Origin: an uncultured Gemmatimonadota bacterium | GTDB lineage: Bacteria > JAAXHH01 | DNA length: 64,000 nucleotides | Assembly: GCA_964593235.1 (NCBI GenBank) | Contig: CAZQGS010000026.1 | Span: forward strand, 22,133-86,132 | Direction: 5' to 3' | Shown: piece after piece, positions 3,086-44,271 of the stretch | Layout: the number at the start of each line of letters is the position of its first letter | How positions within the stretch are numbered: the stretch's first letter is position 1 | Notes under the pieces: model-generated | The model's input: the letters and a program-made list of their open reading frames with translations, nothing else | Databases searched by the model: none | Told to the model about the DNA's origin: nothing | Program-made: the position numbers and the translations under genes

Positions 3086-5569
3086 ATGGCGGTAGAACAA
3101 CACGATAATATTCAGCCCATTTTTATCGAAGACGAAATGAAAAGTTCTTATCTCGACTTCTCCATGAGCGTAAATCTGTCTCGGGCGATTCCAGATGTAC
3201 GGGACGGATTCAAGCCATCACAACGGCGTATACTTGTGGCGATGCGTGATCTGAACCTTACACCCAGCAGGCCCACCCGTAAATGCGCCAAAATCGTCGG
3301 GCAAACAATAGGTGATTACCATCCACATGGTGATCTTGCTGTTTATGATACCCTAGCTCGGATGGCACAGCCTTTTAGTATGCGCTATCCGATGGTTTTT
3401 GGCCAAGGGAATTTCGGGTCCATAGATGGCGATCCACCAGGAGCTATGCGTTACACTGAATCTAGAATGTCCCGTTTGGCTATTGAAATGATGGAGGATA
3501 TTGACAAAAACACAGTTAATTTCATGCCTAATTATGATGAATCTAAAGATGAGCCTACGGTATTGCCGGGGAAGTTTCCTAATCTTCTTTGTAACGGGTC
3601 TCTTGGTATCGGTGTTGGCATGGCTTCTAGTTTACCTTCTCATAATCTTAGTGAGGTAGTAGATGGAATTGTTGGGGTAATAGAAAATCCTGAGATATCG
3701 ATAGATGAAATCGCTGAGAAAATAAAAGGACCAGATTTTGCTACAGGAGCTATAATTTATGGTCGGAATGCAATACAAGAATACTTCAATACTGGTCGTG
3801 GCAAGGTTAAGGTCCGTGCAAGAACCCAAATCGAAACTCACGAACAAAACGAAAAAGAAACAATCGTCATAACCGAGATTCCTTATAAAGTTAACAAATC
3901 AACTCTGATTGAAAAAATTGCTGATCTAGTTCGTGAAAAGCAAATACTGGGAATTACAGATATCAGAGATGAGTCTGATCGATCTGGCCTCCGAATTGCT
4001 ATAGATGTACGAAGGGATATTCCAGCCAACATTATACTAAATCATCTTTTCAAAATGACTCCTCTCGAAACAACTATTGGGGTCACAATGTTGGCTTTGG
4101 TTGATGGTCGACCTAGGGTATTAAATATTAAGGAATGTATTCAACACTTTATTGACCACCGCCATGAAGTATTAGTCAGGCGTACATCTTTCGACCTTGA
4201 GAAAGCCGAACAACGTGCTCACATTGTTGAAGGTTTAAGGGTGGCTCTGGATAATGTGGATCGTGTTATCGAGATATTGCGAAGTTCTCAGACCGGCGAG
4301 GAAGCTATGACAGTTCTTTTGAGCGAATTTGGATTGTCACGGGCTCAGGTAGAAGCAATTCTAGATATGCGACTTCAGCGATTGACAGGTTTAGAAAGAA
4401 ATAAACTAGAGGACGAATACAATGAACTTGTCGCTCAAATTAGTGATTTCAAGGATATTCTATCTCAGTTGCCCCGCCGGATGCAAATTATAAAAGAAGA
4501 GATGATTGAACTTAAAGAAAAATATGGCGATGATAGAAGAACCGAATTAATCGATATAGAAGGTGATCTAAGTATTGAAGACTTAATAGCAGATGAGGAA
4601 ATGGTTATAACCATTTCTCACGCTGGTTACATCAAACGGATCCCCATGGATACTTATACGAGCCAAAATCGTGGTGGTAAGGGTATTACAGGAATGAAAA
4701 CGCGCGATGAAGATTTTGTAGAGCACCTGTTTTCTGCATCAACTCATTCGTATATACTGTTCTTTACAAACCGTGGTAAATGCTACTGGCTGAAGGTTTG
4801 GGAGATACCAGAAGCTGGACGAACTGCCCGTGGCAAAGCGATGGTGAATTTACTTGAACTTGGTCAGGGGGAAAGTATAGCAGCTTTCCTTCCAATTCGG
4901 ACCTTCGATGACGAACATTATATTATGATGGTTACACGAGGCGGGCTTGTGAAAAAGACCGTTCTTTCGGCTTATGGAAATCCTCGAAAGAACGGGATTG
5001 TTGCTTTGAATATCCTCGAAGGAGATGCACTTATCGAAGCATTATTAACTAGTGGAGATAATGACATTGTTATTGCTAGCCGTAATGGCCAAGCTGTTCG
5101 ATTCCACGAGGCTGATGTTCGGACAATGGGAAGAGGTGCCCAAGGTGTTAGGGGCATCCGGCTTGCAGAGGGAGATAGAGTCGTTGGAATGCTAGCTTCT
5201 GATCGGGATGCTACCTTGCTTTCCGTTACTGAAAATGGATATGGTAAAAGAACAGATATCGAAAATTATCGCTTAACCCGAAGAGCAAGCAAGGGCGTTA
5301 GTAACATCCGAACCAGTGAGCGGAATGGATTGGTCGTATCGATCCATGCAGTTGCTGACAAAGATGAACTTATGATCATTACTATGAATGGTCTGATTAT
5401 CCGTCTTTCAGTCAGTGACTTACGTCCTATAGGTAGAAATACCCAAGGTGTTAAATTGATAAACCTTGGTGAGGGAGACCGAGTAATAGATATTTCTAAG
5501 ATTACGCCCAATGAAGAAGAAAAATCAGAAGACATAGAAAACACTAATTCGTCAGAGCAAGCAGACTAA
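3086..5569 (+). CDS. gyrA: DNA gyrase subunit A
   Basis: 827 aa. N-terminal RAIPDVRDGFKPSQRRIL, QRDR-equivalent region, active-site Tyr context (AMRYTESRM), C-terminal beta-pinwheel repeats, acidic tail. Confidence 0.97.
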   Translation: MAVEQHDNIQPIFIEDEMKSSYLDFSMSVNLSRAIPDVRDGFKPSQRRILVAMRDLNLTPSRPTRKCAKIVGQTIGDYHPHGDLAVYDTLARMAQPFSMRYPMVFGQGNFGSIDGDPPGAMRYTESRMSRLAIEMMEDIDKNTVNFMPNYDESKDEPTVLPGKFPNLLCNGSLGIGVGMASSLPSHNLSEVVDGIVGVIENPEISIDEIAEKIKGPDFATGAIIYGRNAIQEYFNTGRGKVKVRARTQIETHEQNEKETIVITEIPYKVNKSTLIEKIADLVREKQILGITDIRDESDRSGLRIAIDVRRDIPANIILNHLFKMTPLETTIGVTMLALVDGRPRVLNIKECIQHFIDHRHEVLVRRTSFDLEKAEQRAHIVEGLRVALDNVDRVIEILRSSQTGEEAMTVLLSEFGLSRAQVEAILDMRLQRLTGLERNKLEDEYNELVAQISDFKDILSQLPRRMQIIKEEMIELKEKYGDDRRTELIDIEGDLSIEDLIADEEMVITISHAGYIKRIPMDTYTSQNRGGKGITGMKTRDEDFVEHLFSASTHSYILFFTNRGKCYWLKVWEIPEAGRTARGKAMVNLLELGQGESIAAFLPIRTFDDEHYIMMVTRGGLVKKTVLSAYGNPRKNGIVALNILEGDALIEALLTSGDNDIVIASRNGQAVRFHEADVRTMGRGAQGVRGIRLAEGDRVVGMLASDRDATLLSVTENGYGKRTDIENYRLTRRASKGVSNIRTSERNGLVVSIHAVADKDELMIITMNGLIIRLSVSDLRPIGRNTQGVKLINLGEGDRVIDISKITPNEEEKSEDIENTNSSEQAD

Positions 5570-5588
5570 GCGAAATAATAAAAAGCCC

Positions 5589-5616
5589 TTGACACAGTTG
5601 CCTCGAGCAATATATT
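5589..5616 (+). promoter_or_regulatory. sigma70-like promoter for lysW (TTGACA 5589-5594, 16-nt spacer, TATATT 5611-5616)
   Basis: Near-consensus -35/-10 hexamers about 65 nt upstream of the lysW ATG. A GGGAGG Shine-Dalgarno at 5670-5675 precedes the ATG at 5681. Confidence 0.5.
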
Positions 5617-5680
5617 GCGTCCGTTCTTACTCAGGAGACTTTGCAAAACCATCGATGATATAGCATAAAGGGAGGAAATT

Positions 5681-5845
5681 ATGGGAGCCTGCCCGGAATG
5701 TGGTGCTGCGACAAACTTAAATGATGATGTTGTGGAAGGCGAAATAATAGAGTGTGAAGAATGTGGAGCAGAACTTGAGGTAGTAAGTATAAATCCCCTG
5801 GAACTTGCGTTGGCGCCTGAAGAGGAAGAAGACTGGGGAGAATAA
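5681..5845 (+). CDS. lysW: LysW amino-group carrier protein (alpha-aminoadipate/glutamate carrier), 54 aa; below ORF-track size cutoff
   Basis: Translation [54 protein letters not shown]. It has the N-terminal CPxCG...CExCG zinc-ribbon and the acidic tail ending in the diagnostic EDWGE C-terminus, whose terminal Glu is the substrate attachment site in LysW. Strong SD, and lysX/Y/Z/J/K homologues lie immediately downstream. Confidence 0.9.
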
Positions 5846-5899
5846 TTTTTGGTTTGTAATAGATTAACTTCGTTTTCAGAAGGAACAAGAGAGATTGAA

Positions 5900-5977
5900 A
5901 TGAGCAAACGAATGAAACATAAACATGAAAATCATGATTGTGATTTACGTTTGTCCGCTCATCACAGTCCAGGTTAG
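5900..5977 (+). other. Candidate 25-codon leader mini-ORF (MSKRMKHKHENHDCDLRLSAHHSPG) between lysW and lysX
   Basis: ATG preceded by a purine-rich GAGAG. 5 His and 3 Lys codons in 25. Its stop codon lies inside a CCAGGTT/AACCTGG hairpin (5969-5998), just upstream of a strong terminator. Could be chance. Confidence 0.25.
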
Positions 5978-6015
5978 TTCAAGAAACGGAAAACCTGGAT
6001 AAAAAGGAACTGATA

Positions 6016-6066
6016 GGAGCCGCGTTCCTCTTCAGATTTGAGCGAAGAGGCCGGCTCCTTTTTTAT
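6016..6066 (+). terminator. Intrinsic terminator/attenuator hairpin between lysW and lysX
   Basis: GGAGCCG..TTCCTCTTC / GAAGAGG..CGGCTCC form a 14-bp interrupted stem (6016-6058) followed by TTTTTTATGTTGTT. Confidence 0.7.
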
Positions 6067-6094
6067 GTTGTTAATCGGGGATAGGGTCAAATAA

Positions 6095-6946
6095 ATGGAA
6101 ATAGGTATTGTATTGTCAAGGATCCGTAAGGATGAGAAACGACTGATTTCAGAGGCTAGTCATCGAGGATTCGGTGTTACAACTATTGACAACACTCAAC
6201 AGGTATTCAAACTGAATAGTTGTCCTGACAGTTTTGATGTAGTGCTAGAACGTTGTGTAGATCACCATAGGGCGGTTTATGTGCTAAGCTTATTCGACTA
6301 TTGGGGGATACCAACAGTGAACCAACAGTCCGTTGTTGAAACTTACGGAAATCGTTTGTTGACAAATCTGGCATTAAAAGACAATGGAGTACCTTTTCCT
6401 GAAGTCAGGTTAGCTTATACGCCAGGGTCTGCCTTAGAAGCTATGGAAACTATTGGATACCCTATTGTACTGAGGCCGGTTGAGGGATCAGGGAATCAAC
6501 TAGTCTCTCGTATCCAAGAAAAACATACGGCAGCCACTATCCTAGAGCATAAGAGGATTTTGGGTACCTATCATCATTCAATATTTTTTATTCAAAAATA
6601 TATTGAAAGCCCAGGCCATGATATCCGCGCATTCGTTGTTGGTGATCAAACAGTCGCTGCCATATCCGTATTAACCCACCACTGGATAGGATCAATTGCT
6701 GACGGTGGTCTAGTAGAGAACGAACCGGTTACAGAAGAATTAAATCAAATTGCTGTTTCTGCTGTTAAGGCTATTGGTGGGGGCATAGCTGTTGTTGATA
6801 TGATCCGTACAAAAACCCAGTGGTATGTTCAAGAGATGGGCCCACCAACAGGGCTGTCTGAAGCATCTGATGTTACGGGAGTTAATATACCCCAGAAAAT
6901 CATTGAATATGTGGCTAATATTGTGGAACAAGGAGGGAAAGTATAA
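6095..6946 (+). CDS. lysX: LysW--substrate ligase, ATP-grasp RimK/LysX family (LysX or ArgX paralogue 1)
   Basis: 283 aa, RimK-type ATP-grasp fold ([21 protein letters not shown]..., [10 protein letters not shown]). First enzyme gene after lysW. The stop overlaps the start of the next paralogue. Confidence 0.8.
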
Positions 6947-7785
6947 TGAAGATAGGCATGTTACTTTCTATTGTTTCCAAAGAACAGAAAATGTTATTTG
7001 AAGCTGCTAGCAAACGTGGTGTTTGTTTCGAAAGATTGGATGACCGGCGCCTCATATTTGACCTTGAGAATCAAAAGTATAATCATGATGTGATTCTTGA
7101 AAGGTGCATCAATCACTCAAGAGCCCTCTATTCTTTAAGAATACTTAATGCTAGCGGCATTAAAACTGTTAATTCGTATGATGTAGCGCGTATCTGTGGA
7201 AACAAATTTTTGACAACGATGGCATTGGTTAATAACAATGTTCCGACACCCAAGGCTTGTGTTGCTTTTACGGCGGAGTCTGCCCTTGATGCTATAGAAT
7301 CTATGGGATACCCAGTTGTGCTCAAACCACCCATAGGTTCCTGGGGTCGCCTAATCGCGCGGATTAATGACCGTAATGCAGCAGAATCGGTGCTCGAACA
7401 TAAGGAGACATTAGGATCTTTTCATCATTCAGTGTTTTACATTCAGGAGTACGTTGATAAACCAGGACGGGATATACGTTCCTTCGTAATTGACGGGCAG
7501 ACTATTTGTGCTATTTATCGTTATTCCGATCATTGGAAAACTAATACTGCTCTGGGAGGAACAGTAGCTGCTTGCCCAGTAGATGGAGATGTAGGAAAAT
7601 TGTCTATTCAGGCTGCCGAGGCAGTGGGCGGGGATGTTGTAGCTGTAGACCTGCTGGAATCTCCAGATGGTATAGTTGTCAACGAAGTTAATTATACAAT
7701 GGAATTTCGGAACAGTATACAACCTACCGGGGTAGATATTCCGGGACGAATTATCGATTATTTGATAAAGGTAGCTCAATCATGA
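6946..7785 (+). CDS. Second ATP-grasp LysX/ArgX-family ligase (paralogue 2)
   Basis: 279 aa, colinear with the previous protein ([21 protein letters not shown]..., [10 protein letters not shown]). Tandem duplicate. Two ligases with a single Z/Y/J/K set resembles the LysX+ArgX architecture. Confidence 0.8.
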
Positions 7786-8825
7786 TTAAAGTCTCTATCG
7801 TTGGTGCTTCTGGATACGGCGGCGGAGAGTTGTTACGTCTTCTTCTTGCTCACTCTGAAATAGAGATTCAGCAGGTTACTTCTGAATCGTTAGTTGGTAA
7901 ACCTGTTGGACGTTCTCATCCAAATCTACGTAGGCTTACTGACCTAAAATTCCATGCTATGGATGATTTAAAACCCTGTGACGTTATTTTTCTATGCCTA
8001 CCGCATGGGGAAGCTATGAAACAATGGGACTCGCTGTCTGGTCTTGCTGATCGTGTTATTGATCTAAGTGCCGATTTTCGCCTTCGCAATCCATTGGACT
8101 ACCCAATTTGGTACGGGCATGAACATACCAAGCCGGGAGTATTGAATCACTTTGTGTATGGTTTAGCCGAATTATACCGAGAAGAAATTAGGAATGCTGA
8201 ATTTGTGGCCTGTACGGGATGCTTAGCTGCTACAGCCATCCTATCTTTGGCGCCTTTGGTCAAGACTGGTAGTATCGATCCTTCAAGGTTATTTTTGGAA
8301 GGGAAAATTGGTTCGTCAGCAGGTGGTAATAAATCAGATCACTCCACTCACCATCCCGAGCGGAGTGGCTCTGTACGATCATTCAAGCCAACAGGCCATA
8401 GGCACACAGCGGAAGTAATACAGGAGTTAACTGTCGATGGGCAGGTTCCCCAGGTCCATTTTTCTGCGACAGCAATAGAAATGGTGCGAGGAATCCTGAT
8501 GACAAGCCATGTTTTTGTAGATAAGGATTTATCCGAAAGAGAAATTTGGGAGATTTACAGAGAAGTTTACGAAAACGAGCCTTTTATTCGTATTATTAAA
8601 GAACGGAATGGTATTTACCGATATCCCGATCCAAAAATCCTCTCAGGTACTAATTTTTGTGATATTGGATTTGAACGAGATAAGCACAGTGATCGTTTAG
8701 TAGTCCTAGGTGCCTTAGATAACCTAGTTAAAGGAGCTGCTGGACAGGCTGTTCAGGCTATTAATATAATGCATGGATGGGATGAGCAGACAGGTTTACA
8801 ATTTCCTGGGTTGCACCCTATATAG
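7782..8825 (+). CDS. lysY: [LysW]-aminoadipyl/glutamyl-phosphate reductase (ArgC/LysY family)
   Basis: 347 aa. [24 protein letters not shown](P)-binding N-terminus. A Cys is present in the region ([17 protein letters not shown]) where ArgC/LysY carry their catalytic Cys. ArgC-like C-terminus. Overlaps the upstream gene by 4 nt. Confidence 0.85.
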
Positions 8826-8831
8826 GAATTC

Positions 8832-10100
8832 ATGATGAACTACAAAGCACCTAGAGGCACCTACGATATCTTGCCCGAAGATCAATCCTATTGGCGTTAC
8901 GTGATCGAAACAACACATCGTGTTTGCCGGCTTTATGGTTACGAGCAAATAGATGTTCCAATATTCGAGCAGACGAACCTCTTCAAAAGGAGCGTTGGTG
9001 AATCCACAGATATTGTAGAAAAAGAGATGTATACCTTTGTTGATCGTAGTGATGAGAGTATGACTTTGCGTCCTGAATTAACTGCGGGCATCTGCCGAGC
9101 CTATGTTGAACGTAAACTTCATGGGCGGCCACAACCGTTAAAGTTTTTTACGATTGGCCCGGCGTTTAGGTATGAACGTCCTCAGGCTGGTCGTTATCGT
9201 CAGTTCTATCAGCTAGACGTTGAGGCTTTAGGTAGCCAGGATCCAGCTATAGACATAGAGATTATGCAAGTGGCATGGCAGATTTACGAGGAAATTGGTT
9301 TAGGTGGATTATCTTTCCAAGTTAATAGTACCGGATGTCCCGAATGCCGTCCAGGATATCTTAGCCTTCTTAAAGAATGGTACGAATCCCGTATATCAGG
9401 TCTTTGTCAAGACTGCCAGCGACGCTACGGACAGAATCTACTCAGATTGTTAGATTGTAAAAATGAAGCCTGCCGAGAAATATCTGATAGAGCTCCGAAG
9501 ATTACCGCTGCATTATGTGGCGACTGTGGCAATCATTTTGAAGAATTGAGATCTTATTTGGATATATTGAAACGTCCGTATGAGGTTAATCATCGGCTTG
9601 TTCGAGGATTAGACTACTATACAAAGACGGTATTTGAAGTCTGGGCCTCTGGCATTGGTGCTCAAAATGCGGTAAGTGGAGGTGGACGTTATGACGGCTT
9701 AGTTAAAGTGATAGGCGGTCCCGAAACCCCAGCAATAGGTTTTGCTTCGGGGATAGAACGTATTATCCTCGCAATGAAACAAGAAGGTATTATTCCTCCG
9801 GAACTGGCTAACCCAAAAGTTTTTATCGCTTACATTGGAACGGCTGCAAAATCAGCTGCTGTCCTTTTAGTGCAGGAACTTCGAAGTGGAGGAATCAGTG
9901 TGGCTGCTCTTTGGGATGATCGTAGTCTAAAATCTCAAATGAAGCAGGCAGATCGGGTTGGAGCAACATACACTGTAATCATAGGTAATAATGAAATAAC
10001 AAGTGGCAAATATATATTGCGAAGGATGGGAGAAAGCGCCCAGATTGTTTTAAGTCCTTCGGAAATTTTGCCAAGGTTAAAAGATGGAGATTTCTCATGA
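8832..10100 (+). CDS. hisS: Histidyl-tRNA synthetase (class II), embedded in the lys operon
   Basis: 422 aa. HisRS signature PRGTYDILPED near the N-terminus, class II motifs (TLRPELTAG, FRYERPQAGRYRQFYQ), HisRS-specific Cys-rich insertion, C-terminal anticodon-binding domain. Its stop overlaps the lysZ start (ATGA). Confidence 0.85.
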   Translation: MMNYKAPRGTYDILPEDQSYWRYVIETTHRVCRLYGYEQIDVPIFEQTNLFKRSVGESTDIVEKEMYTFVDRSDESMTLRPELTAGICRAYVERKLHGRPQPLKFFTIGPAFRYERPQAGRYRQFYQLDVEALGSQDPAIDIEIMQVAWQIYEEIGLGGLSFQVNSTGCPECRPGYLSLLKEWYESRISGLCQDCQRRYGQNLLRLLDCKNEACREISDRAPKITAALCGDCGNHFEELRSYLDILKRPYEVNHRLVRGLDYYTKTVFEVWASGIGAQNAVSGGGRYDGLVKVIGGPETPAIGFASGIERIILAMKQEGIIPPELANPKVFIAYIGTAAKSAAVLLVQELRSGGISVAALWDDRSLKSQMKQADRVGATYTVIIGNNEITSGKYILRRMGESAQIVLSPSEILPRLKDGDFS

Positions 10101-10894
10101 TCGTGATCAAAACAGGAGGGAGTAGAGGTATTAATATTGATTACGTTCTTGCGGATCTTGCTTTTCAAACAGAGCCACTTGTGTTTTTGCATGGGGCGTC
10201 TGACGAATTAAATCAAATATCCGAGCGGCTAGGTAAACCTCCTCGAATGGTCACATCGCCTTCTGGGTACACCAGTAGGTACACCGACTCAGGAACCCTT
10301 GATATTTTTAATATGGTATACTGTGGTAAAATAAACACTCGTATCGTTGAAAAACTTCACCAACTGGGGGTTAATGCTGTTGGACTAAGTGGTGTTGATG
10401 GTAGACTTCTTGAGGGTAAAAGAAAATCTACTGTCCGTATCATTGAGGAAGGGAAGAAGAAACTGCTTAGAAATGATTTTACGGGGCGTGTTGAAAAGGC
10501 GAACGTAAATCTTCTTACACTTCTTCTTGGCCAAGGTTATCTACCAGTCGTCAGTCCTCCGGCTATTAGTTATGAAGGTGAAATTATCAATGTCGACGGC
10601 GATAGGGCTGCTGCCGTGATAGCAGAGGGACTCGGAGCTGATAGGTTAATTATACTCTCTAATACACCAGGTTTTCTGAAAGATGCGGATGCCGAAGAGA
10701 CCTTAATACCACGGCTTAACCGAGATGATATTGACGATGTGATAAGGAAATATGCAAGAGGCCGGATGAAGAAGAAACTACTGGGTGCTCGGGAAGCCCT
10801 AGAGGCAGGTGTGGGTACGGTGATTCTTGGTGATGGTCGTATACCCAATCCAGTTACATTAGCTTTGCAGGGTAAGGGCACCGTAATTACGTAG
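10097..10894 (+). CDS. lysZ: [LysW]-aminoadipate/glutamate kinase (ArgB/LysZ amino-acid kinase family)
   Basis: 265 aa. MIVIKTGGS opening and GASDEL..., VVSP..NVDGDRAAAVIAEGLGADRLIILSNTPG AAK-family motifs. Confidence 0.85.
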   Translation: MIVIKTGGSRGINIDYVLADLAFQTEPLVFLHGASDELNQISERLGKPPRMVTSPSGYTSRYTDSGTLDIFNMVYCGKINTRIVEKLHQLGVNAVGLSGVDGRLLEGKRKSTVRIIEEGKKKLLRNDFTGRVEKANVNLLTLLLGQGYLPVVSPPAISYEGEIINVDGDRAAAVIAEGLGADRLIILSNTPGFLKDADAEETLIPRLNRDDIDDVIRKYARGRMKKKLLGAREALEAGVGTVILGDGRIPNPVTLALQGKGTVIT

Positions 10895-10956
10895 GGAAAA
10901 TAAAAATTAATGGTTGTATAGCATAAAGATTGGGATGATAACAGGGGGCAAAAGCC

Positions 10957-12150
10957 ATGATACAGTACAAGGAGATGGAAGATAAAGTCTCTATGGGAAT
11001 TTTGCCAAAGAGAGACGTCGTAATTGTCCGTGGGAAAGGTACCAGATTATGGGATACCGAAGGCAAGGAGTATATTGATTGTGTAGGAGGACATGGGACA
11101 GCGAATATCGGTCATAATCATCCGGTTGTTGTAGAGGCGTTGGTTCGTCAGGCGGAGCAACTTATGATATGTCCCGATATGTTTTATAATAATGTAAGGG
11201 CCAAATTAGTAACAACATTAGCCCAAGTAGCTCCGGCAGGACTAGACCGTCTTTATTTGTGTAACTCAGGGACAGAAGCGGTGGAAGCAGCATTGAAATT
11301 CGCTCGTGTGGCAACTAAGAGAACAGGAGTGATCGCAGCGCAAAGAGGTTTTCACGGGCGGACTTTTGGAGCTCTAAGTGCAACCTGGAATCCTAAATAT
11401 CGAAAGCCATTTCAACCTCTTGTACCAGGTTTCTCTCACGTAAAGTATAACGACATGCAGGCGATTGATTCTGCTATAGATGATGGCACAGCCGCCGTTA
11501 TTTTAGAAGTAGTTCAGGGAGAAGGTGGTGTGCGCCTAGGTACCGAAAGCTACTTAAAGAAAGTGGAAGCCCTTTGCCGAAACCGGGGTTCATTATTGAT
11601 ATTAGATGAAGTGCAAACAGGTTTTGGCAGAACAGGTACTATGTTTGCCTGCCAGCACTACGATATACAGCCAGATATTATCTGCGTTGCTAAAGCAATG
11701 GCAGGTGGATTGCCAGTAGGAGCGGTCCTCTGTTCTGATTTGGTTAAAGAAATTCCAACGATGTCTCACGGTAACACCTTTGGTGGTAGCCCTATTGTCT
11801 GCGCGGCTGCTTTGGGTACGTTGAGTGTACTACAAAACTCAGGGATAATCCAAAATGCCCGAGAGATGGGGATCTATTTTAGAGAACGACTTGAAACACT
11901 AGACCTCAGGATTATCCGAGAGATTCGAGGTCTAGGCCTTATGATTGGACTAGAACTGAAAAGCCGAGTTTCACCGGTATTGAAAGGTCTTATGGACCAT
12001 GGTATATTAGCTTTGCCAGCAGGCAACACAGTACTACGTTTCTTGCCACCTCTATCAATAACAGCAGATGACATTGATCAGGTCGTAGATGCTCTAAAAA
12101 TAGTACTGAAGCCACTGGATAAAATTTCAACAGAAGAATCCACAGAATAA
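10957..12150 (+). CDS. lysJ: Class III PLP aminotransferase (ArgD/LysJ family)
   Basis: 397 aa. GTEAVEAALKFAR, DEVQTGFGRTG, PLP-Lys region (ICVAKAMAGGLP), SHGNTFGGSP. Confidence 0.85.
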   Translation: MIQYKEMEDKVSMGILPKRDVVIVRGKGTRLWDTEGKEYIDCVGGHGTANIGHNHPVVVEALVRQAEQLMICPDMFYNNVRAKLVTTLAQVAPAGLDRLYLCNSGTEAVEAALKFARVATKRTGVIAAQRGFHGRTFGALSATWNPKYRKPFQPLVPGFSHVKYNDMQAIDSAIDDGTAAVILEVVQGEGGVRLGTESYLKKVEALCRNRGSLLILDEVQTGFGRTGTMFACQHYDIQPDIICVAKAMAGGLPVGAVLCSDLVKEIPTMSHGNTFGGSPIVCAAALGTLSVLQNSGIIQNAREMGIYFRERLETLDLRIIREIRGLGLMIGLELKSRVSPVLKGLMDHGILALPAGNTVLRFLPPLSITADDIDQVVDALKIVLKPLDKISTEESTE

Positions 12151-12202
12151 CTAGGATTAGACTGTTCTGTAGGTAAAGATCAATTTAGGGTAGGGAATAT
12201 AA

Positions 12203-13249
12203 ATGAGTGTTCAATGTGACGACCTGGACTTATTGCGTGGCCTAGTCGATCATTACAGTCCTTCTAGGCAAGAAGAAGATGCAGTATCTTTTCTAGTCGA
12301 ATCGATGGAACAGAGAGGTATAAATTCTTATATTGATGGGGCGGGAAATGCAGTTGGGGAAGTGGGTGATGGTTCCCCACATATTGCTCTCGTCGGGCAT
12401 ATAGATACTGTGAAGGGGATTATTCCCGTCCGAGAGAAATCTGGTCGTCTTTACGGTCGTGGAACAGTAGATGCTAAGGGTCCCCTCGCCACATTTGTGG
12501 CGGCCGTGTCTCGGTTTACTAAACTCGATCAAGGTAGGATTACAGTTGTAGGTGCTGTGGAAGAAGAGTGTCCGACATCACGAGGTGCCCGATATCTTGT
12601 TAATCAAATGAAACCAGATCATGTATTTATTGGTGAACCTAGCGGTTGGGATAGTATCACTATAGGATATAAGGGTATCGTTGGTTTCAATTTCAAGTTA
12701 AAACAATCTAATGCTCATTTTGCTGGCAATAATTTACGTTCGGGAGACAAAGCAATAACATTTTATAACAATCTTTTATCCTACCTTAACCAACATGAAA
12801 TCAAGAGTGAATTTGGATCTCCTCGACTTGAACTAAGGAGAATTAATACTCTTGATGAAGGGTTAACAGAAAATGTAGAGGCCTATTTTTCAGTGCGCAT
12901 TCCTCCTGGATATGGAGTGGAAAATCTTATTAACTTTATAGGAGTTCAGTCAGGAGATGCTGAAATAGAATGTGATCAGAAACTAGAGGGTATTATTGCG
13001 AAAAAAAATACTCCGCTAGTCCGGGCTTTGTTGCAAGGCATTCGTCAAGAGGGTGGGCAACCAACTTTCAAGAAAAAGACTGGCACTTCAGATATGTGTG
13101 TCATCGGTCCGGAATGGAAATGCCCCATCGTAGCATATGGTCCAGGAGATTCTAGTTTAGATCATACACCAGACGAACATATAATACTCGATGATTATCT
13201 TCGATCTATCCAAGTAATGACAAATGCGTTAAAATCCCTAATATTATGA
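12203..13249 (+). CDS. lysK: [LysW]-lysine/ornithine hydrolase, M20 (ArgE/DapE/LysK) family
   Basis: 348 aa. HIALVGHIDTV metal-binding motif, GRGTVDAKGPLA, M20 dimerisation-domain insertion. Last gene of the colinear block. Confidence 0.8.
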   Translation: MSVQCDDLDLLRGLVDHYSPSRQEEDAVSFLVESMEQRGINSYIDGAGNAVGEVGDGSPHIALVGHIDTVKGIIPVREKSGRLYGRGTVDAKGPLATFVAAVSRFTKLDQGRITVVGAVEEECPTSRGARYLVNQMKPDHVFIGEPSGWDSITIGYKGIVGFNFKLKQSNAHFAGNNLRSGDKAITFYNNLLSYLNQHEIKSEFGSPRLELRRINTLDEGLTENVEAYFSVRIPPGYGVENLINFIGVQSGDAEIECDQKLEGIIAKKNTPLVRALLQGIRQEGGQPTFKKKTGTSDMCVIGPEWKCPIVAYGPGDSSLDHTPDEHIILDDYLRSIQVMTNALKSLIL

Positions 13250-13324
13250 ATTAACCTCAAAAGTAAAAATTTTGATACAATCTTCCAATGTTTTTATAAC
13301 TTCTTTTTTAATAAACCACTCTCC

Positions 13325-14545
13325 TTAAGTCCTAAGAATTAATTCTCCGATTTCCTTAAGTTGGCCTAAGTTTCTACATTCAAGAACATGGTCACAGTAT
13401 GGATGGTAGGTAGACATGACAGAATCATCGGTGTTCCAATATTGTTGAGGTTCAGGGTTCAGCCATATCATTTTGTGAACCCTGTTCTGTAACTCATCTA
13501 GAACCCAATCTTGGGGATCAAACCAGTTTGTCCGGGCGTCGCCGAGTATGACTAGTACAGTATTCTTAGATAGCGAAGGAAGATATTCGTCGTAGAACTG
13601 GTAAAAGGCCCTTCCAAAATCACTTAGTCCAAAAAAATTGAGCGTATGATCATTTTTAAAATTTTCGACAATTTCTTCAAATGTGTTGTGGTCAAAATTG
13701 TCCGTGACCTCTGTGATACGATCTACGAAAAGAAAACTACGGGCTCGACGGAATTGACTTTGCATTTCATGGACTAATTTTATAAAGAAACGGGCGACTT
13801 CCCAAACAGATCCTGAAACATCACATAATACAACCAATTCATTTTTCTTGATTTTCTGATGTTTGTGTATTATGTGAAAAGGCAGATTACCTGTGCGAAA
13901 ACTTCTTTGAATAGTTTTTTTAATATCGACTCTTCCATGGCCTGACTTTTTGAAGCGTAATGACTTACGTGTGACAAGATTTCGGGCTAAGTCTTCCACC
14001 GCGTCGTAGAGGTTTTCAATTTCACCTGATGGTAATTCCTGGTAAAGATCAATAGTATCGGAGCTTTTGTCCCTTTGCACTCCTGGTTCGGTGGCATTTT
14101 CTGAGGTTTGTTCACCCAAATTAATACGGGCTAGGATTTTCTTGAGGACATCATCTTCTGATTCTTGGCTATCAGAAGTCTCTTCGTTAGTCGAGGTATC
14201 ATTTTGTTTATCTTCGTTATCTGGGGTCCCATTTTCATCATTTTCTGAATGATTTTTAGAATCAGTATGATCTTCGGAACTTTGGTCTATGTCGTTTGGC
14301 AAATTATCACTGTCGTTATTTTGATCCTCTATCTCAACTAGGAAAAATTGTTCAAAAGCTTCTTCAAAAGTGGGGATATCCTCATTAGATTTTATCAAAG
14401 TAGTTCGGAGCGAGGTCTTGAATGTATGGCGTTCAATGAGGGGAGTATGCCTAAGCATTTCAGCTGCATCGAGGGTTTCTGCCATAGAGATGCGAATACC
14501 AGACTGCCGGAGCATTCTGACAAATTCAACGAGACGACAGATCAT
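13325..14545 (-). CDS. VWA-domain protein, CoxE-like (MoxR partner), with acidic low-complexity linker
   Basis: 406 aa. C-terminal VWA with MIDAS-like LVVLCDVSGSV. About 90-aa D/E/N/S-rich region (NDSDNLPNDIDQSSEDHTDSKNHSENDENGTPDNEDKQNDTSTNEETSDSQESEDD). Overlaps the MoxR gene by 20 nt. Confidence 0.75.
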   Translation of the reverse strand: MICRLVEFVRMLRQSGIRISMAETLDAAEMLRHTPLIERHTFKTSLRTTLIKSNEDIPTFEEAFEQFFLVEIEDQNNDSDNLPNDIDQSSEDHTDSKNHSENDENGTPDNEDKQNDTSTNEETSDSQESEDDVLKKILARINLGEQTSENATEPGVQRDKSSDTIDLYQELPSGEIENLYDAVEDLARNLVTRKSLRFKKSGHGRVDIKKTIQRSFRTGNLPFHIIHKHQKIKKNELVVLCDVSGSVWEVARFFIKLVHEMQSQFRRARSFLFVDRITEVTDNFDHNTFEEIVENFKNDHTLNFFGLSDFGRAFYQFYDEYLPSLSKNTVLVILGDARTNWFDPQDWVLDELQNRVHKMIWLNPEPQQYWNTDDSVMSTYHPYCDHVLECRNLGQLKEIGELILRT

Positions 14546-15575
14546 TGTAATTTTCTTTCATGATCCGATCAATATCTTCTCTATCCTTCATAAGTACGTT
14601 CAAGGTACTTGAAAGAATATCGCGCGACAAATTTTCTGCATTAAGGACCACTAATGCCATTGCCCAATCAATTGTTTCCGCAATGCTTGGTGGTTTGCGG
14701 ACGTTCAGTTTTCTAATTTTTTGAACAAAACGGACTACTTGGTTCGCTAGATCTTCGTTAAGGCTTGGGACTTTGCAAAGAACAATCCGAGTTTCCTGGT
14801 CAAACGGAGGATAGTCTATATAGAGATACAGACATCGTCTTCTCAAGGCTTCAGAAAGACTACGATTAGCGTTGCTTGTCAATACTACCAGTGGCCTTTG
14901 AGCAGCAGTCAACGTCCCTAGTTCTGGTATGCTCACCTGAAAATCACTGAGTATTTCCAGGAGGAAACTCTCAAATTCATCGTCAGCTCGATCTATTTCA
15001 TCTATTAGCAAAACAACGGGTTCTGTCGAAAGTATAGCTTCTAGTAGGGGGCGCGGGAGCAGAAAATATCTTGAAAAGAAAGCTTTCCCTTCCTGGTTTA
15101 GTGTTTCCACCGCATTAGCAATAGTCTCAGTCTCGTTTACTAGGTCCCCTATGCGGTCTTTTAGGATCTGTGTGTAAAGTAATTGTTTTGTATATTCCCA
15201 TTCATAAAGTGCCTTGGATTCATCCAGGCCTTCGTAACATTGTAATCTAATTAAACGTCGTCCAAGGGTTACCGAAAGCGTTTTTGCAATCTCGGTTTTG
15301 CCAACCCCAGGGGGTCCCTCAACTAGTAGTGGTTTCTCTAGGCGCTCCATTAAAAAAATTGGCGTAGCCAGATTTGAATCACAGATGTAACCGTGCGATT
15401 CAAACTGCTGTAAAACATCTTTGGCAGATTTGAAAGAAGCCATACTACTCCTGAAAGGATAACTAACCTGTGGGATTATAACGGTCAAAACAAAGGAATT
15501 ACAGTACCTCATTCTCTGAGGATAATAACTGCTCGTGCATCGCCCAAAATTACCAATTATATGACATAATGTCAA
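14526..15575 (-). CDS. MoxR-family AAA+ ATPase (CoxD-like)
   Basis: 349 aa. Walker A LVEGPPGVGKT, Walker B VVLLIDEIDRA, MoxR-type helix-2 insert and sensor regions. Operonic with the VWA protein. Confidence 0.85.
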   Translation of the reverse strand: MTLCHIIGNFGRCTSSYYPQRMRYCNSFVLTVIIPQVSYPFRSSMASFKSAKDVLQQFESHGYICDSNLATPIFLMERLEKPLLVEGPPGVGKTEIAKTLSVTLGRRLIRLQCYEGLDESKALYEWEYTKQLLYTQILKDRIGDLVNETETIANAVETLNQEGKAFFSRYFLLPRPLLEAILSTEPVVLLIDEIDRADDEFESFLLEILSDFQVSIPELGTLTAAQRPLVVLTSNANRSLSEALRRRCLYLYIDYPPFDQETRIVLCKVPSLNEDLANQVVRFVQKIRKLNVRKPPSIAETIDWAMALVVLNAENLSRDILSSTLNVLMKDREDIDRIMKENYNDLSSR

Positions 15576-33861: not shown

Positions 33862-34476
33862 ATGGCCTATACTTCTCCTGGAGAAACCAGGAATAAAATC
33901 TACAGTTTTGTAAGGGAGCAGATCCTAAATGGAACACCACCCACAACTCGCGAAGTTCAATATGCTTTTGGATTTCGAGCAGTTCAGTCAGCTCGACAGC
34001 ATTTAGAGAAGTTGGTACTTGAGGGTAAGCTCGCTAAAGTGGATGGAATGTCACGAGCCTACCGATTACCGGAGTTTGGAAAAGTTAGTCCTCCCCAGTT
34101 AATCCCTATGTTAGGCCGTGTCCAAGCTGGAGAATTAACAGAGGCTATGGAGGATCCTTCAGAATATATAATGGTACAAACTCGTTTTGATGACAGTGAG
34201 CTTTTTGCACTGACGGTAGAGGGAGAAAGTATGCTAAATGCAGGTATTATGCCCGGAGATATGGTTGTTGTGCGCCGACAACCTACTGCTAGTTCGGGAG
34301 ACATCGTAGTAGCATTGATTGGTGAGGAAGCAACAGTCAAGCGGTACCGAGAACGAAATAGTAGTATTGAATTACATCCGGAGAATGACACTTTTTATCC
34401 AATAATTCCCGAGGAACTAGGGACATCATTTTCAATTTTGGGTAAGGTTATTGAGGTCCGACGGTGTGTAGAATAA
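33862..34476 (+). CDS. lexA: LexA repressor (S24 peptidase)
   Basis: 204 aa. wHTH N-domain, Ala-Gly cleavage site (VQAGE), catalytic Ser (GESM) and Lys (VKRY) in the C-domain. Confidence 0.9.
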   Translation: MAYTSPGETRNKIYSFVREQILNGTPPTTREVQYAFGFRAVQSARQHLEKLVLEGKLAKVDGMSRAYRLPEFGKVSPPQLIPMLGRVQAGELTEAMEDPSEYIMVQTRFDDSELFALTVEGESMLNAGIMPGDMVVVRRQPTASSGDIVVALIGEEATVKRYRERNSSIELHPENDTFYPIIPEELGTSFSILGKVIEVRRCVE

Positions 34477-34495
34477 AGTTAATATAGAAAGAAAA

Positions 34496-34515
34496 ATCGA
34501 AAAGTGTTCTTCGAT
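34496..34515 (+). promoter_or_regulatory. Inverted repeat ATCGAA-N8-TTCGAT upstream of imuA (candidate operator)
   Basis: Perfect 6-bp arms with 8-nt spacer (AAGTGTTC), 29 nt upstream of the imuA ATG, inside the short lexA-imuA intergenic region. Confidence 0.3.
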
Positions 34516-34543
34516 AGGTCAAAGAAATATCTAAGGAGTTTTC

Positions 34544-35179
34544 ATGTCAGGTATAAGTGTTCTGGATCTGCAGAATCACGATCTCTATTTTAAGCGAATT
34601 CCACGTGTAGATAAGAAAAAGAAACCGATATGGTCTCGGAAAGAACTGGCTGGACGTCTCTGCGAGTTGTCCTCTATCTATGGTACGGCACAGTTAACAG
34701 CTGCATTCCAATTGGTTTTAGACGCACAATTTGAAGGCGAACCAACCGCTTGGATCACAACGACGTTAGATACATTTTTTGCTCCTGATGCAGCAGAGGG
34801 TGGTGTGGACCTAGATGCTCTTGTAGTCATCCATGTCCCCAATACGGCAGCCGCAACGCGTGCGGCTGATCGGATTCTACAATCCGGGGGATTTGGATTG
34901 GTAGTAATGGATCTTCATGGTGATTCCAGAATTCCAATACCGATGCAAATGCGCTTAGTTCAGCAAGTTAGGGAATACAATACAGCCTTTTTATGCCTAA
35001 CTATCAAGTCCAAAGATATGCCTTCATTGGGACCGATGGTTTCTCTTAGAGGTCAGACATCTTGTCGTCGTCTGACGGTTGGACGTTTTCAATATGAAAT
35101 CGAAGTACTTAAGGACAGAAGTTATGGGCCAGGCTGGCATTATGCCGAAATCTGCCGTGGTCCGGACGGCTTGCATTAA
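34544..35179 (+). CDS. imuA: ImuA-like (SulA/RecA-fold) mutagenesis cassette protein
   Basis: 211 aa, degenerate RecA-like core (FGLVVMDLHG...), placed between lexA and a Y-family polymerase paralogue plus dnaE2. Confidence 0.65.
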   Translation: MSGISVLDLQNHDLYFKRIPRVDKKKKPIWSRKELAGRLCELSSIYGTAQLTAAFQLVLDAQFEGEPTAWITTTLDTFFAPDAAEGGVDLDALVVIHVPNTAAATRAADRILQSGGFGLVVMDLHGDSRIPIPMQMRLVQQVREYNTAFLCLTIKSKDMPSLGPMVSLRGQTSCRRLTVGRFQYEIEVLKDRSYGPGWHYAEICRGPDGLH

Positions 35180-36608
35180 TATCTGGGACTTGCCATTACA
35201 GATCCTATTAAGGAACCACCCAGAGTGGTGTAAAAAGCCAGTAGCTGTGGTAGAAGAAGAACAACCTTTGAGTCCTATTTTGTGGCTCAATGCAGCTGCT
35301 ATCCGGGCTGGTATTAAACCAGGGATGCGATATTCCTCGGCTCTATCTCTAGATCAGGGCCTGTGTGCAGGAACGATTTCAGATCAAGAAATACATTTTA
35401 CAATACAGAATATCCATATGGTACTCGATCATTTTAGCCCCTGTGTAGAACCAAGCAGGGAGGATCCTGGTATTTTCTGGTTAGATGCAAGTGGATTAAA
35501 TTTGCTCTACAGTTCCCTCAAAAATTGGGCGAGTCAGATTCAATCTAGTATTTTGCGTTTGGAATTAAAAGCTAGTATAGTAGTTGGCTTCAGCCGTTTC
35601 GGTACTTATGCAATTGCCAAGGGAAAAAAGGCAATGGTTGTAATGCCCACTATGGAAGTAGAAAATTACGAGAGTAACAGAGTCCATTTACAGCACTTTC
35701 AACTTCATTCTAAACTAAAAAAACAGTTAATCAAATTAGCAATACATACTGTAGATGACTTCCTCGCGCTTCCGCAAGAAAGTATAGTACAACATCTTGG
35801 TAAGCAGGCCAGAGATTTCTACCACTTCGCAATGAATGAACAATCTCTACCTCTTCAACCCCAAAAACTCCCTGAATCTTTTCAAGCCCAGATAGAATTA
35901 AGTAGAAATGAATCTAACTCTCAGAGTTTACTACTTCGAACATCTCAATTGTTAATACCCTTGCTAAATAAGATAGGGAATAAAGGGCAAGTAGTTGTGG
36001 CTCTTCGGTTAGAGTTTCGGTGTGAAAATGGAACTAGGTGTTATCACCGTATCCAGGCTGCAGAGCCCACCTTAAATGCCAAAATTTTGTTGGAACTTGT
36101 TGGTTTGAAACTGGAAACAATAACTTTTATTTTCCCTGTGGTAGAACTTTATCTCGAGGCAGAAGGTGTATGTTTTACAGATAAAAAAAGGAGTTTGTTT
36201 CGAGAGAACCCAATCCGTGATAAGAGCTCAGCTATGCGTGCATTAGCACGAGTGCGTGTTGAGTTTGGTACTAATTCAGTACTCATAGCCCAACTTAAAA
36301 AAGGACACCTACCAGAAGCTCGCTTTGAATGGTATCGCTTTGATAGACTCACAATTGCCAAGCCACGATCGGTATCCATACGTTCTCTGATACGTCGTAC
36401 TTATACACACCCTAGAGCGGTAGGTGATTTGCTATTAAAATATCCGCCATCCCCAATATCTTCCCACGAATATTTAATAAACGGGGGTTGGTGGTGTCGA
36501 GAAATCCGGAGAAATTACCGTTTTGTAGATACTAGAAAGGGTGAAACCCTTTGGGTTTATTATGACCACCGGAAACATAGTTGGTTCGTGCAGGGTTGTG
36601 TTGAATAA
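35142..36608 (+). CDS. imuB: ImuB, catalytically inactive Y-family polymerase paralogue (start uncertain: 35079/35124/35142)
   Basis: About 490-510 aa with Y-family (UmuC/DinB-like) palm/fingers arrangement but no catalytic DxD acidic motif recognisable by eye. Lies between imuA and dnaE2. The ORF-track start at 35079 overlaps imuA by 100 nt, so an internal Met is more plausible. Confidence 0.7.
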   Translation: MPKSAVVRTACINIWDLPLQILLRNHPEWCKKPVAVVEEEQPLSPILWLNAAAIRAGIKPGMRYSSALSLDQGLCAGTISDQEIHFTIQNIHMVLDHFSPCVEPSREDPGIFWLDASGLNLLYSSLKNWASQIQSSILRLELKASIVVGFSRFGTYAIAKGKKAMVVMPTMEVENYESNRVHLQHFQLHSKLKKQLIKLAIHTVDDFLALPQESIVQHLGKQARDFYHFAMNEQSLPLQPQKLPESFQAQIELSRNESNSQSLLLRTSQLLIPLLNKIGNKGQVVVALRLEFRCENGTRCYHRIQAAEPTLNAKILLELVGLKLETITFIFPVVELYLEAEGVCFTDKKRSLFRENPIRDKSSAMRALARVRVEFGTNSVLIAQLKKGHLPEARFEWYRFDRLTIAKPRSVSIRSLIRRTYTHPRAVGDLLLKYPPSPISSHEYLINGGWWCREIRRNYRFVDTRKGETLWVYYDHRKHSWFVQGCVE

Positions 36609-36641
36609 TTTCGAATAGAGTGTTTAACATTTATAATCATT

Positions 36642-39600: not shown

Positions 39601-39845
39601 AAAAACCGAAAACAGCTCAAGGCGTTACGTTTATGACATTAGAGGACGAAACAGGTTTTGTAAATCTAGTGATTTGGAAACAGGTTTTCGAAAATAATAT
39701 CACACTGGCAAAAAAACTGTATTATATGGGAGTTACTGGTAAACTTCAGGTAGGAGAAGGCCTTGTTCATTTAATTGTAAAGTCAATTTGGAACCCAGCA
39801 CTGGATGATCAACTTCTCTATTTACAAAGTAGAGATTTTCGTTAA
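36642..39845 (+). CDS. dnaE2: Error-prone DNA polymerase III alpha paralogue DnaE2 (ImuC)
   Basis: 1067 aa. PHP domain N-terminus, Pol IIIalpha palm/fingers (GRGSAANSAVCFSLGIT, DIDLDIEHDRR, GFLIGHLPIYELVPIE), OB domain at the C-terminus. No tau/beta-binding tail, and a typical DnaE2 length. Confidence 0.9.
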   Translation: MNDNVTGVRSLSNSNSMVSPAKTYTPLWCKSNYSFLEGASHPEELVDSCKNLGITSLSLTDRNGVYGIIRAHVRARDLDIHLIVGSQVSLQNGSDILLLAQNQEGYSQLCQLLTNGQLRSHKGECRVSWEEVCHHNPGLIALWIGESYPIKSTLSENYNSTFILEQLKSNFEDRLYVLLARHHHAEEPLREIQLRELANKLRVPTVAAVEVLYHVPERRRLQDVLTCIREGVTLPEAGQLIRPNDQYFMKSMDDMKRLFADDLVSLERTREISERCNFHLGEIHYRYPLERLPKGKTSIQYLEERTFEGAAQRLGDKFETQIPQLRKELTLIRELEYEGYFLTMFEIVEYCRRQNIICQGRGSAANSAVCFSLGITSVNPTQVNLLFERFLSRERAEPPDIDLDIEHDRREEVIQYVYRKYGRSHAAMVANVVRYRYRSAIREVGKVLGIPATSLDQLAKQVSHGNWNGTLFRNTGLDPENPIIRHLNILVREIQHFPRYLSIHPGGFLIGHLPIYELVPIENATKNRRTVIQWDKEDVENAGLFKVDLLGLGALNLLHRGFDLLSRYRQKELSLATIPRDDIATFDLICRSETVGVFQIESRAQMAMLRRMKPRSYYDLVVQISIVRPGPITGGMVHPYLRRRNREEYVTYPHESLIPVLKKTLGVPLFQEQVMQLAMVAADYTPGEADQLRRDMSAWRFSGRIDRHRGRLISRMVKKGIEKKFAKQVFEQIRGFGEYGFPESHAASFAHIAYATAYMRCHYPAEFICALLNAQPMGFYTPATIVNDARIHGIEIRSVDIRHSRWECTLEKIEDTSGKANIKNSNVGTKHKIFAVRVGLRYIRGFGKKDWDKLELAMSKAPFRDIQDIVQRSGINKGKLESLAVAGAFNCFGKERRYSIWDILGTKEYYQSPLLLKMDNPLPKFKSLGDLETICWDHQTSGHSVQGHLLKPRRSELTAQGIPTARELNRMSDGDTVKYVGLVISRQKPKTAQGVTFMTLEDETGFVNLVIWKQVFENNITLAKKLYYMGVTGKLQVGEGLVHLIVKSIWNPALDDQLLYLQSRDFR

Positions 39846-44167: not shown

Positions 44168-44271
44168 TGTTTTTTAGCGCGTGGTACGGTCTAACAAGGT
44201 GAAGTTTTTCCACCAATTCGGATAGCATTGACAGGGAACTAATTTTACTGAAGAGATATGGAAATAGAAGA

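Follow-up and report, generated by a model that had tools for sequence, protein, structure and literature searches.

The 64,000-nucleotide stretch of an uncultured Gemmatimonadota bacterium analysed here (contig CAZQGS010000026.1; hereafter the window) carries, at positions 5589–13249, an operon for biosynthesis on LysW, the amino-group carrier protein (AmCP). In this operon, the gene for a canonical LysX ligase, lig2, is preceded by lig1, which encodes a second, degenerate protein of the LysX family. Judged by sequence, Lig1 is a lineage-specific, strongly derived LysX paralogue and not an ArgX. The best explanation overall, whose chances we put at about even, is a Thermus-type LysW lysine operon in which Lig1 is a non-catalytic, LysX-derived partner. 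LysW pathways are the textbook case of lysine and arginine biosynthesis diverging from a promiscuous ancestor, and the characterised systems work either with a single ligase, as in Thermus and Thermococcus, or with two that are both catalytically intact, as in Sulfolobus. A Lig1 that is conserved, under selection and coupled to LysX, and that lacks residues common to RimK, LysX and ArgX, fits neither the one-ligase nor the two-intact-ligase model. LysW pathways are already known in bacteria and the present one is a further member, ordinary as a pathway; what is new in the operon is a degenerate but conserved paralogue of LysX, together with an embedded hisS and an internal terminator element.

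The original prediction, made from the DNA letters and their translations, had recognised a complete LysW set (W, X, Y, Z, J and K) in a bacterium, with seven lysine genes. The profile scores support this: the seven are intact open reading frames (ORFs) on the + strand, each backed by NCBIfam or Pfam profiles, and all six pathway functions score above or near the curated profile cutoffs. The lysW gene (5681–5845) encodes a 54-residue zinc-ribbon amino-group carrier protein with the C-terminus EDWGE, which scored 69.4 bits on TIGR01206 (cutoff 53.2) and 73.3 bits on PF21344. Its top sequence match in the Protein Data Bank (PDB) was Thermus LysW (3WWL, 58.8 bits), and the alignment runs end to end, including CxxC...CxxC and EDWGE. 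The product of lig2 (6946–7785), a canonical LysX of the [LysW]-aminoadipate ligase type, reached 332.2 bits on the LysX model TIGR02144 (cutoff 275.6) and 290.7 bits to Thermus LysX (3VPD). LysY (7782–8825), the [LysW]-aminoadipyl-phosphate reductase of the ArgC family, scored 389.6 bits on TIGR01850 (cutoff 233.6); its top PDB matches were the Thermus entries 2OZP and 5EIO at 394–398 bits, with the runner-up at 226 bits. LysZ (10097–10894), the [LysW]-aminoadipate kinase, scored 380.1 bits on the aminoadipate-specific model NF010659 (cutoff 223) versus 204 bits on the bifunctional NF010662, and matched Thermus LysZ best in the PDB (3U6U and 3WWM, 262–265 bits; best acetylglutamate kinase, 98 bits). 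LysJ (10957–12150), a class-III aminotransferase of the LysJ/ArgD family, gave 449.4 bits on TIGR00707 of the argD subfamily (cutoff 410), and 457.5 bits on the Thermus LysJ model versus 374.4 bits on the Sulfolobales LysJ model, both values lying under the 700-bit equivalog cutoffs. LysK (12203–13249), the [LysW]-lysine hydrolase of the M20 family, scored 383 bits on NF003367 (cutoff 363) and contains the PF01546 domain. For LysZ, LysJ and LysK, the Thermus-type or aminoadipate-specific models outscored the bifunctional archaeal ones.

Five positions (182, 192, 203, 258 and 259, in the numbering of Thermus LysX, which we use unless stated otherwise) form a signature of ligase type: aminoadipate-specific LysX has F-I-T-NS, ArgX has I-Y-V-GF, and the bifunctional enzyme of Thermococcus has Y-I-T-NA (PMC12998189). 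Lig2 carries exactly F-I-T-NS, and its GSWGRL, QEY, TNTA.GG and NEVN motifs are all intact. From this signature and these intact catalytic motifs, together with the Thermus-like LysW, LysZ and LysY and the model scores of LysZ and LysJ, we infer that the operon is best read as a Thermus-type aminoadipate-to-lysine module. The likeness to the Thermus thermophilus LysW pathway extends over all six components, including the best-matching LysW, LysZ and LysY, the F-I-T-NS of Lig2 and the EDWGE tail. The Thermus genes for the pathway are split over several loci, whereas here all six genes stand in one operon. The present operon also differs from the Thermus system in the extra degenerate LysX paralogue, the embedded hisS, the terminator-like element after lysW and the lack of aminoadipate-supply genes nearby.

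The other ligase gene, lig1 (6095–6946, + strand), encodes a 283-residue divergent LysX paralogue in which the three-domain ATP-grasp fold is intact and the active site is non-canonical. Among the ORFs searched with TIGR01206 and TIGR02144, the profiles to which the original prediction had pointed, LysW and Lig2 pass the cutoffs and Lig1 does not: it scored 243.7 bits on TIGR02144, short of 275.6. It scored 82.5 bits on PF22626, and the one model that it passed was that of the RimK family at large (221 bits, with a cutoff of 143.4). The possibility that both ligases are RimK-type S6-glutamate ligases was rejected, in line with the original prediction, because they scored only 63.9 (Lig1) and 62.9 bits (Lig2) on NF007764 against a cutoff of 331, and because both carry the LysX pre-ATP-grasp domain and lie in a lysW context. 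Lig1 belongs to the same ATP-grasp subfamily as Escherichia coli RimK, but differs from it in this equivalog score, in its LysX-specific N-terminal domain and in its place in a LysW operon.

The same prediction had taken the two ligases as a Sulfolobus-type pair of LysX and ArgX. This assignment was not supported by the signature motif, the profile scores, the set of catalytic residues or the Thermus-like partners. The Sulfolobus system consists of LysX and ArgX, one LysW and bifunctional Z/Y/J/K enzymes (Ouchi et al. 2013, as summarised in PMC12998189). The present operon resembles it in having two LysX-family ligases with one carrier and one downstream enzyme set, an arrangement shared by the window and nine related loci (L001–L006, L014, L016 and L020). 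However, the signature of Lig1 is F-I-I-EA, that of its relatives is Y-V-I-DA, and that of the whole family is (Y/F)-(V/I/L)-(I/V)-(E/D)-A, which matches none of the three published types. Lig1 as an ArgX was thus rejected for lacking both I-Y-V-GF and the bifunctional Y-I-T-NA, and the profiles and catalytic residues were also contrary. In 12 of 12 tested members of the Lig1 family, a profile of F-I-T-NS (aminoadipate-type) LysX beat an ArgX-like profile by 20–45 bits. Against Thermus LysX, TK0278 of Thermococcus kodakarensis and Sulfolobus tokodaii ArgX, Lig1 scored 197, 153 and 127 bits, and Lig2 scored 291, 231 and 183 bits. The Lig1:Lig2 ratio is uniform at 0.66–0.69, indicating that Lig1 has no special affinity for ArgX. 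The extra ligase therefore differs from that of Sulfolobus in its signature, in being nearer to the bacterial LysX profile and in lacking catalytic residues that ArgX keeps, and the downstream enzymes score best on Thermus-type or aminoadipate-specific models. With no ArgX-like second ligase, the operon is like that of Sulfolobus in gene count, and not through homology of the extra ligase.

The relatives of Lig1 form a tight family (P0001–P0039) at 59–99% identity, and the next proteins are at 49% or less. Among 1.84 billion cluster representatives, the family is a single cluster at 50% identity, with the next protein 43% identical, and its members were seen only in metagenome-assembled genomes that bear a Gemmatimonadota label. 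In a neighbour-joining (NJ) tree of 90 LysX-family representatives, the Lig1 family was monophyletic with 100% bootstrap. The median net charge is −10 in the Lig1 family versus −6 in canonical LysX, a difference that is uninformative as a proxy for LysW binding.

To locate the changes in Lig1, its family was compared with a canonical set of 82 bacterial LysX sequences, in which 141 positions are at least 95% conserved, and the residues were calibrated by an alignment of E. coli RimK (K-12 genome), Thermus LysX, TK0278 and S. tokodaii ArgX. The Lig1 family keeps 75 of the 141 canonical positions. Retention is 84% over residues 41–85, 38% over 166–210 and 20% over 246–280, which places the losses mainly in the active-site half. 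Four residues present in RimK, Thermus LysX, TK0278 and S. tokodaii ArgX alike, namely E170, N202, R205 and N251, are gone from the Lig1 family. In the Q-E-Y hinge, K stands in place of E170 in 37 of 37 family sequences. In the (S/T)-N-x-x-R-G-G loop, N202 is replaced by P, T or S, and R205 by D, A, E or G. The E-x-N motif has G, S or A in place of N251, the third Mg ligand in ATP-grasp structures. To our knowledge, N202 and N251 are nearly universal in ATP-grasp enzymes. In addition, R137 is replaced by Q in all 37 sequences, the G-S-W-G-R loop of LysX and ArgX reads E-G-P-x-x-Q, and the substrate-binding stretch Y-T-M-E-F-R-N-S has become P-P-T-G-L-(S/T)-(E/D)-A. The bifunctional LysX/ArgX enzyme TK0278 (PDB 5K2M) shares its fold with Lig1 at a template-modelling (TM) score of 0.86, and the Lig1 family often has the Y182 and A259 of that enzyme; however, TK0278 has GSWGRL, QEF, TNTARGG, NEVN and N258, none of which is present in Lig1. 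On these sequence comparisons, Lig1 fits no characterised ligase type, since residues common to all those compared are lost.

The lig1 gene is nevertheless maintained as strictly as its neighbours. The ratio of non-synonymous to synonymous substitution rates (dN/dS), taken pairwise among unsaturated relatives, was 0.09–0.145 for lig1 versus 0.09–0.125 for lig2, and lysY and lysZ gave similar values. The Lig1 family has invariant residues of its own (E130, P132, Q135, K168, V192 and W243, in Lig1 numbering). An AlphaFold2 (AF2) model of Lig1 built with 50 sequences had a mean predicted local distance difference test score (pLDDT) of 86.2 and a predicted TM score (pTM) of 0.87, and its best match among solved folds was Thermus LysX (3VPD, TM 0.89), ahead of TK0278, ArgX and RimK. 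Judged by this selection, its own invariant residues and the confidently predicted fold, the lig1 gene is functional. Its stop codon overlaps the ATG of lig2 in the window as TAATG, and coordinates give a lig1/lig2 overlap of 4 nt in all nine related loci. Such an overlap of stop and start is the usual signature of translational coupling.

In the pathway that we propose from these homologies, LysX (Lig2) would ligate α-aminoadipate to the C-terminal Glu of LysW, after which LysZ would phosphorylate, LysY reduce and LysJ transaminate the bound intermediate, and LysK would release lysine. Lig1 would no longer perform canonical ATP-dependent ligation and would pair with the translationally coupled LysX as a non-catalytic partner, a regulatory subunit or a LysW-binding subunit. 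Such a partnership with LysX, whether non-catalytic or regulatory, is suggested by four points: the two genes are coupled, the N-terminal half of Lig1 is conserved, its active site has been remodelled, and other tandem pairs of a catalytic and a degenerate copy are known; we hold this with a confidence that falls just short of an even chance or at best reaches it. HisZ, the HisRS-like regulatory subunit of HisG, is an analogue of such a degenerate partner. The hetero-oligomeric aminotransferase Ser4/Ser5 (PMC11726168) is likewise a tandem pair of one catalytic and one degenerate copy, and its likeness to Lig1/Lig2 is one of analogy only. Lig1/Lig2 would resemble both Ser4/Ser5 and HisZ/HisG as a tandem, coupled pair in which one copy lacks catalytic residues yet is under selection.

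Several observations weigh against a lysine operon with a non-catalytic Lig1. Lig1 keeps the nucleotide- and metal-site residues K129 (K/R), Q169, D178, R180, D237 and E249 (E/D), and it shows features like those of RimK, that is, E-G at the start of the glycine loop and P-x-G-L past the metal-binding Glu. With these retained sites and RimK-like features, Lig1 may still bind nucleotide and catalyse something. The Lig1-family residues at 182 (Y), 203 (I/V) and 259 (A) resemble those of glutamate-accepting enzymes. In the NJ tree, the deep position of the family had a bootstrap of at most 47, and we have therefore left the tree topology out of the argument. Furthermore, no aminoadipate-supply genes were seen in the 64-kb window, so the assignment to lysine is one of enzyme-level homology: among ORFs of at least 120 residues, there was no homocitrate synthase, homoaconitase, homoisocitrate dehydrogenase or aminoadipate aminotransferase, and no further lysine or arginine gene. 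The earlier statement that homocitrate synthase, argJ and argA are missing from the window holds for the same ORFs.

The retained nucleotide- and metal-site residues also speak for the alternative that Lig1 is an active ATP-grasp ligase with another substrate or acceptor, either another amino acid on LysW or another protein, which would be a new activity. The remodelled pocket is itself conserved (E130, P132, Q135, K168, V192, I201, W243, G253-L254 and (E/D)256-A257 in Lig1 numbering), the dN/dS is about 0.1, and the changes of R205 to acidic or neutral residues and of N258 to an acidic one would be well matched to a substrate lacking a distal carboxylate. On the other hand, N202 and N251 are lost, and different members of the family carry different residues in their place, which speaks against these positions having a catalytic role. 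The operon contains no extra tailoring or acceptor genes, and since LysZ needs a distal carboxylate, any other amino acid loaded onto LysW would not be taken further by the enzymes downstream. We regard this alternative as unlikely, while giving it some weight.

Another alternative is that Lig1 is a convergent ArgX analogue that loads glutamate, with the shared Z/Y/J/K enzymes leading to ornithine and the operon serving both lysine and arginine as in Sulfolobus. This would account for the presence of a second ligase beside a single LysW and a single Z/Y/J/K set, and for the strong purifying selection on lig1. Y182 is present in 26 of 37 family sequences together with I/V203 and A259, comparable to Y182 and A259 in TK0278 and V203 in ArgX. 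A smaller, more hydrophobic LysX pocket raises glutamate activity, and two of the later Thermus enzymes tolerate glutamate derivatives in part: LysZ works on LysW-Glu with about 60% of its native activity, and LysY on LysW-Glu phosphate with about 15–20% (PMC12998189); with this tolerance of LysW-Glu derivatives, the downstream enzymes here may be bifunctional. However, the same study reports that F182I alone lets Thermus LysX load glutamate (PMC12998189), so a switch of specificity needs no rebuilt active site. Lig1 has lost R137, E170, N202, R205, N251 and E255, all of which are present in S. tokodaii ArgX and TK0278 and kept in nearly all ArgX-like cluster representatives inspected. It has neither the G-F nor the N-A pair at 258–259, and every member tested preferred the LysX profile over the ArgX-like one. 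In addition, in another bacterial cluster described below (L021), a degenerate copy coexists with an intact F-S-T-GL ligase as well as an F-I-T-NS LysX. A glutamate-loading Lig1 is thus quite improbable. The last alternative, a decaying duplicate without a function of its own, could explain the score under the LysX equivalog cutoff and the lost catalytic residues, but is contradicted by the selection data (dN/dS of 0.09–0.145, equal to lysY and lysZ), by an ORF that is intact and in the same position in 10 of 10 loci even at about 59–60% Lig1 identity, by the family's own invariant residues and by the confidently predicted fold, and we give it hardly any credence.

Degenerate LysX copies were also found in other bacterial LysW loci. 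In L018 (37–1982), lysW is followed by a degenerate copy (P0127) and an F-I-T-N-I LysX, and L017 (3–2069) contains, in this order, an intact ligase, a degenerate copy (P0142) and lysY. In L019 (7779–10864), argG-argH-lysW is followed by a degenerate copy (P0147), an M20 hydrolase and then an intact F-S-T-GL ligase. L021 (7697–16032) has argG-argH-lysW, the degenerate P0281, an M20 gene, an intact F-S-T-GL ligase, lysY, lysZ, lysJ and an F-I-T-NS LysX, which makes three LysX-family ligases in one cluster. These degenerate copies are all altered in the G-S-W-G-R loop (Q or T at 137) and in the T-N-T-A-R-G-G loop. A single origin of Lig1, P0127, P0142, P0146, P0147 and P0150/P0281 found no support, as each prefers the canonical LysX profile over the Lig1-family profile. 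The presence of a degenerate copy beside two intact ligases in L021 suggests, by analogy, that the degenerate class may be a third kind of component. In the literature searched, no description of tandem or degenerate LysX paralogues in bacteria was found. We tentatively propose, with somewhat less than even confidence, that degenerate LysX paralogues are an undescribed recurrent part of bacterial LysW systems, namely non-catalytic or re-purposed ATP-grasp subunits that aid the true ligase and evolved in several lineages (here and in L017–L019 and L021). Their roles as partners could be, for instance, LysW docking, end-product regulation or quality control of loading.

If Lig1 is indeed a partner or regulatory subunit, it would be an added component of carrier-protein-mediated amino-acid synthesis; if it still ligates, it would widen the chemistry known to be tolerated by the ATP-grasp fold. 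For this lineage, automatic labels such as 'LysX' or 'ArgX', or calls of 'lysine plus arginine' based on the count of two ligases, would mislead.

The expression signals of the operon lie upstream of lysW and between lysW and lig1. A promoter-like site on the + strand (5589–5616; TTGACA, a 16-nt spacer and TATATT) begins at 5589, where the original prediction had placed the start of the locus. It matches the consensus at 11 of 12 positions and is the best match in 5400–13600, a region in which the total number of such sites equals the shuffle expectation. The 249-nt gap between lysW and lig1 holds three conserved hairpins, which were found by direct reading of the sequence and by RNAalifold and make up a structured spacer RNA on the + strand (5897–6064). 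Hairpin 1 (5897–5965) encloses a mini-ORF of 25 codons (5900–5977; MSKRMKHKHENHDCDLRLSAHHSPG), hairpin 2 (5966–6002) has three compensatory pairs, and the G+C-rich terminator-like hairpin (6015–6059) is followed by a T-run that ends at 6064, about 29 nt before the ATG of lig1. For the window and L001–L005, RNAalifold predicted 60 pairs, three of them with compensatory changes. The length of the mini-ORF and its motif KR(M/I)KHKH..HDCDLR are identical in all six sequences, among which the differences are mostly non-synonymous. The mini-ORF has 3 Lys and 5 His codons, and its start codon is paired in hairpin 1. A hairpin with a T-run, though not the mini-ORF, also occurs in L006, L014 and L016, which are more distant. 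With gathering thresholds, Rfam gave no match in the spacer or the rest of the window; relaxing the limit to an E of 10 added nothing beyond chance-level hits.

The Lys and His codons upstream of lysine genes and hisS are suggestive of attenuation. The Thermus lysine cluster is controlled by leader-peptide transcriptional attenuation, and the his and trp attenuators are classical. The spacer resembles these in having a short Lys/His ORF in a hairpin and then a strong hairpin with a T-run just upstream of biosynthetic genes. It differs from known attenuators in that no alternative antiterminator pairing was found, its regulatory codons are few and the start codon is sequestered, and its more distant relatives keep the terminator and not the mini-ORF. 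Classical leader-peptide attenuation was rejected, because no antiterminator was found and because the terminator persisted when the Lys and His codons were masked in constrained folds of the window, L001 and L004. Since the terminator survives this masking and no Rfam family matches, we class the spacer simply as a terminator-like element that is conserved. The transcript probably begins upstream of lysW, and the enzyme genes would be reached only by read-through of the terminator-like hairpin, which would yield more carrier protein than enzymes or act as a regulated checkpoint. The least effect to be expected of the element is an excess of lysW transcripts over those for the enzymes.

The original prediction had described the seven lysine genes as colinear with 4-nt overlaps or short gaps. 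The order and strand are as described, but the lysW–lig1 gap is long and hisS (8832–10100, + strand) interrupts lysY and lysZ. It encodes a full-length histidyl-tRNA synthetase with both the catalytic core and the anticodon-binding domain (TIGR00442, 478.4 bits; cutoff 286.75), begins 6 nt past lysY and overlaps lysZ by 4 nt. The slot of hisS is the same in the nine relatives, and the order lysW-lig1-lig2-lysY-hisS-lysZ-lysJ-lysK is kept in all ten loci. In these loci, gyrB-gyrA is followed by 0 to 3 genes and then the lysW block, with Lig1 identity down to about 59–60%. This conserved gene order indicates that the arrangement is old and stable in the lineage and not an accident of assembly. 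In single-ligase LysW clusters of metagenome-assembled genomes (MAGs) of Bacteroidetes, Arenicellales and Poriferihabitaceae, the gap between lysY and lysZ, the slot taken by hisS here, contains an ORF of about 215 residues with the motifs MCRLL...EYQGHGWG...NNMPF...FNGEL and no Pfam match (L007, about 7060–7715; L008, about 11755–12447; L009, about 11892–12574; L010, about 11886–12598).

The nearest genomic relatives of the window are MAGs labelled Gemmatimonadota and one labelled Latescibacterota, and its GyrB and GyrA are 86–92% identical to those of the nearest five (L001–L005). Isolate names, from which alone this is read, suggest that several of the relatives come from sponge or coral samples. 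The 3' end of recF and a dciA-like ORF lie upstream of gyrB at 1–634 of the window, which indicates that the LysW operon sits within a dnaN-recF-dciA-gyrB-gyrA block. Such a block is usually near the replication origin. The window has 41% G+C and lig2 a G+C content at third codon positions (GC3) of 0.34, whereas L001–L005, with GyrA 90–92% identical, have 61–65% G+C and a GC3 of 0.86. Between the window and L001–L005, synonymous sites are saturated (proportion of synonymous differences, pS, 0.9–1.0) while dN is only 0.1–0.17. The organism of the window has thus undergone a strong compositional shift toward A+T.

The window contains no tRNA genes. Convergent to lysK on the minus strand (13325–15575) are a VWA-domain gene (MadC-like) and an AAA ATPase gene (MadB-like), which both score under their model cutoffs and are syntenic in most of the related loci. 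At 41963–47096, two ABC exporter genes and a DUF1854 gene match NCBIfam 'cyanophycin metabolism-associated' models at 595–601 and 106 bits, under the cutoffs of 880 and 150, and there is no cyanophycin synthetase in the window. At 33862–39845, lexA, an unannotated ORF, an IMS/ImuB-like gene and a gene for an error-prone DnaE2-type polymerase stand in a row, which is the layout of an SOS mutagenesis cassette.

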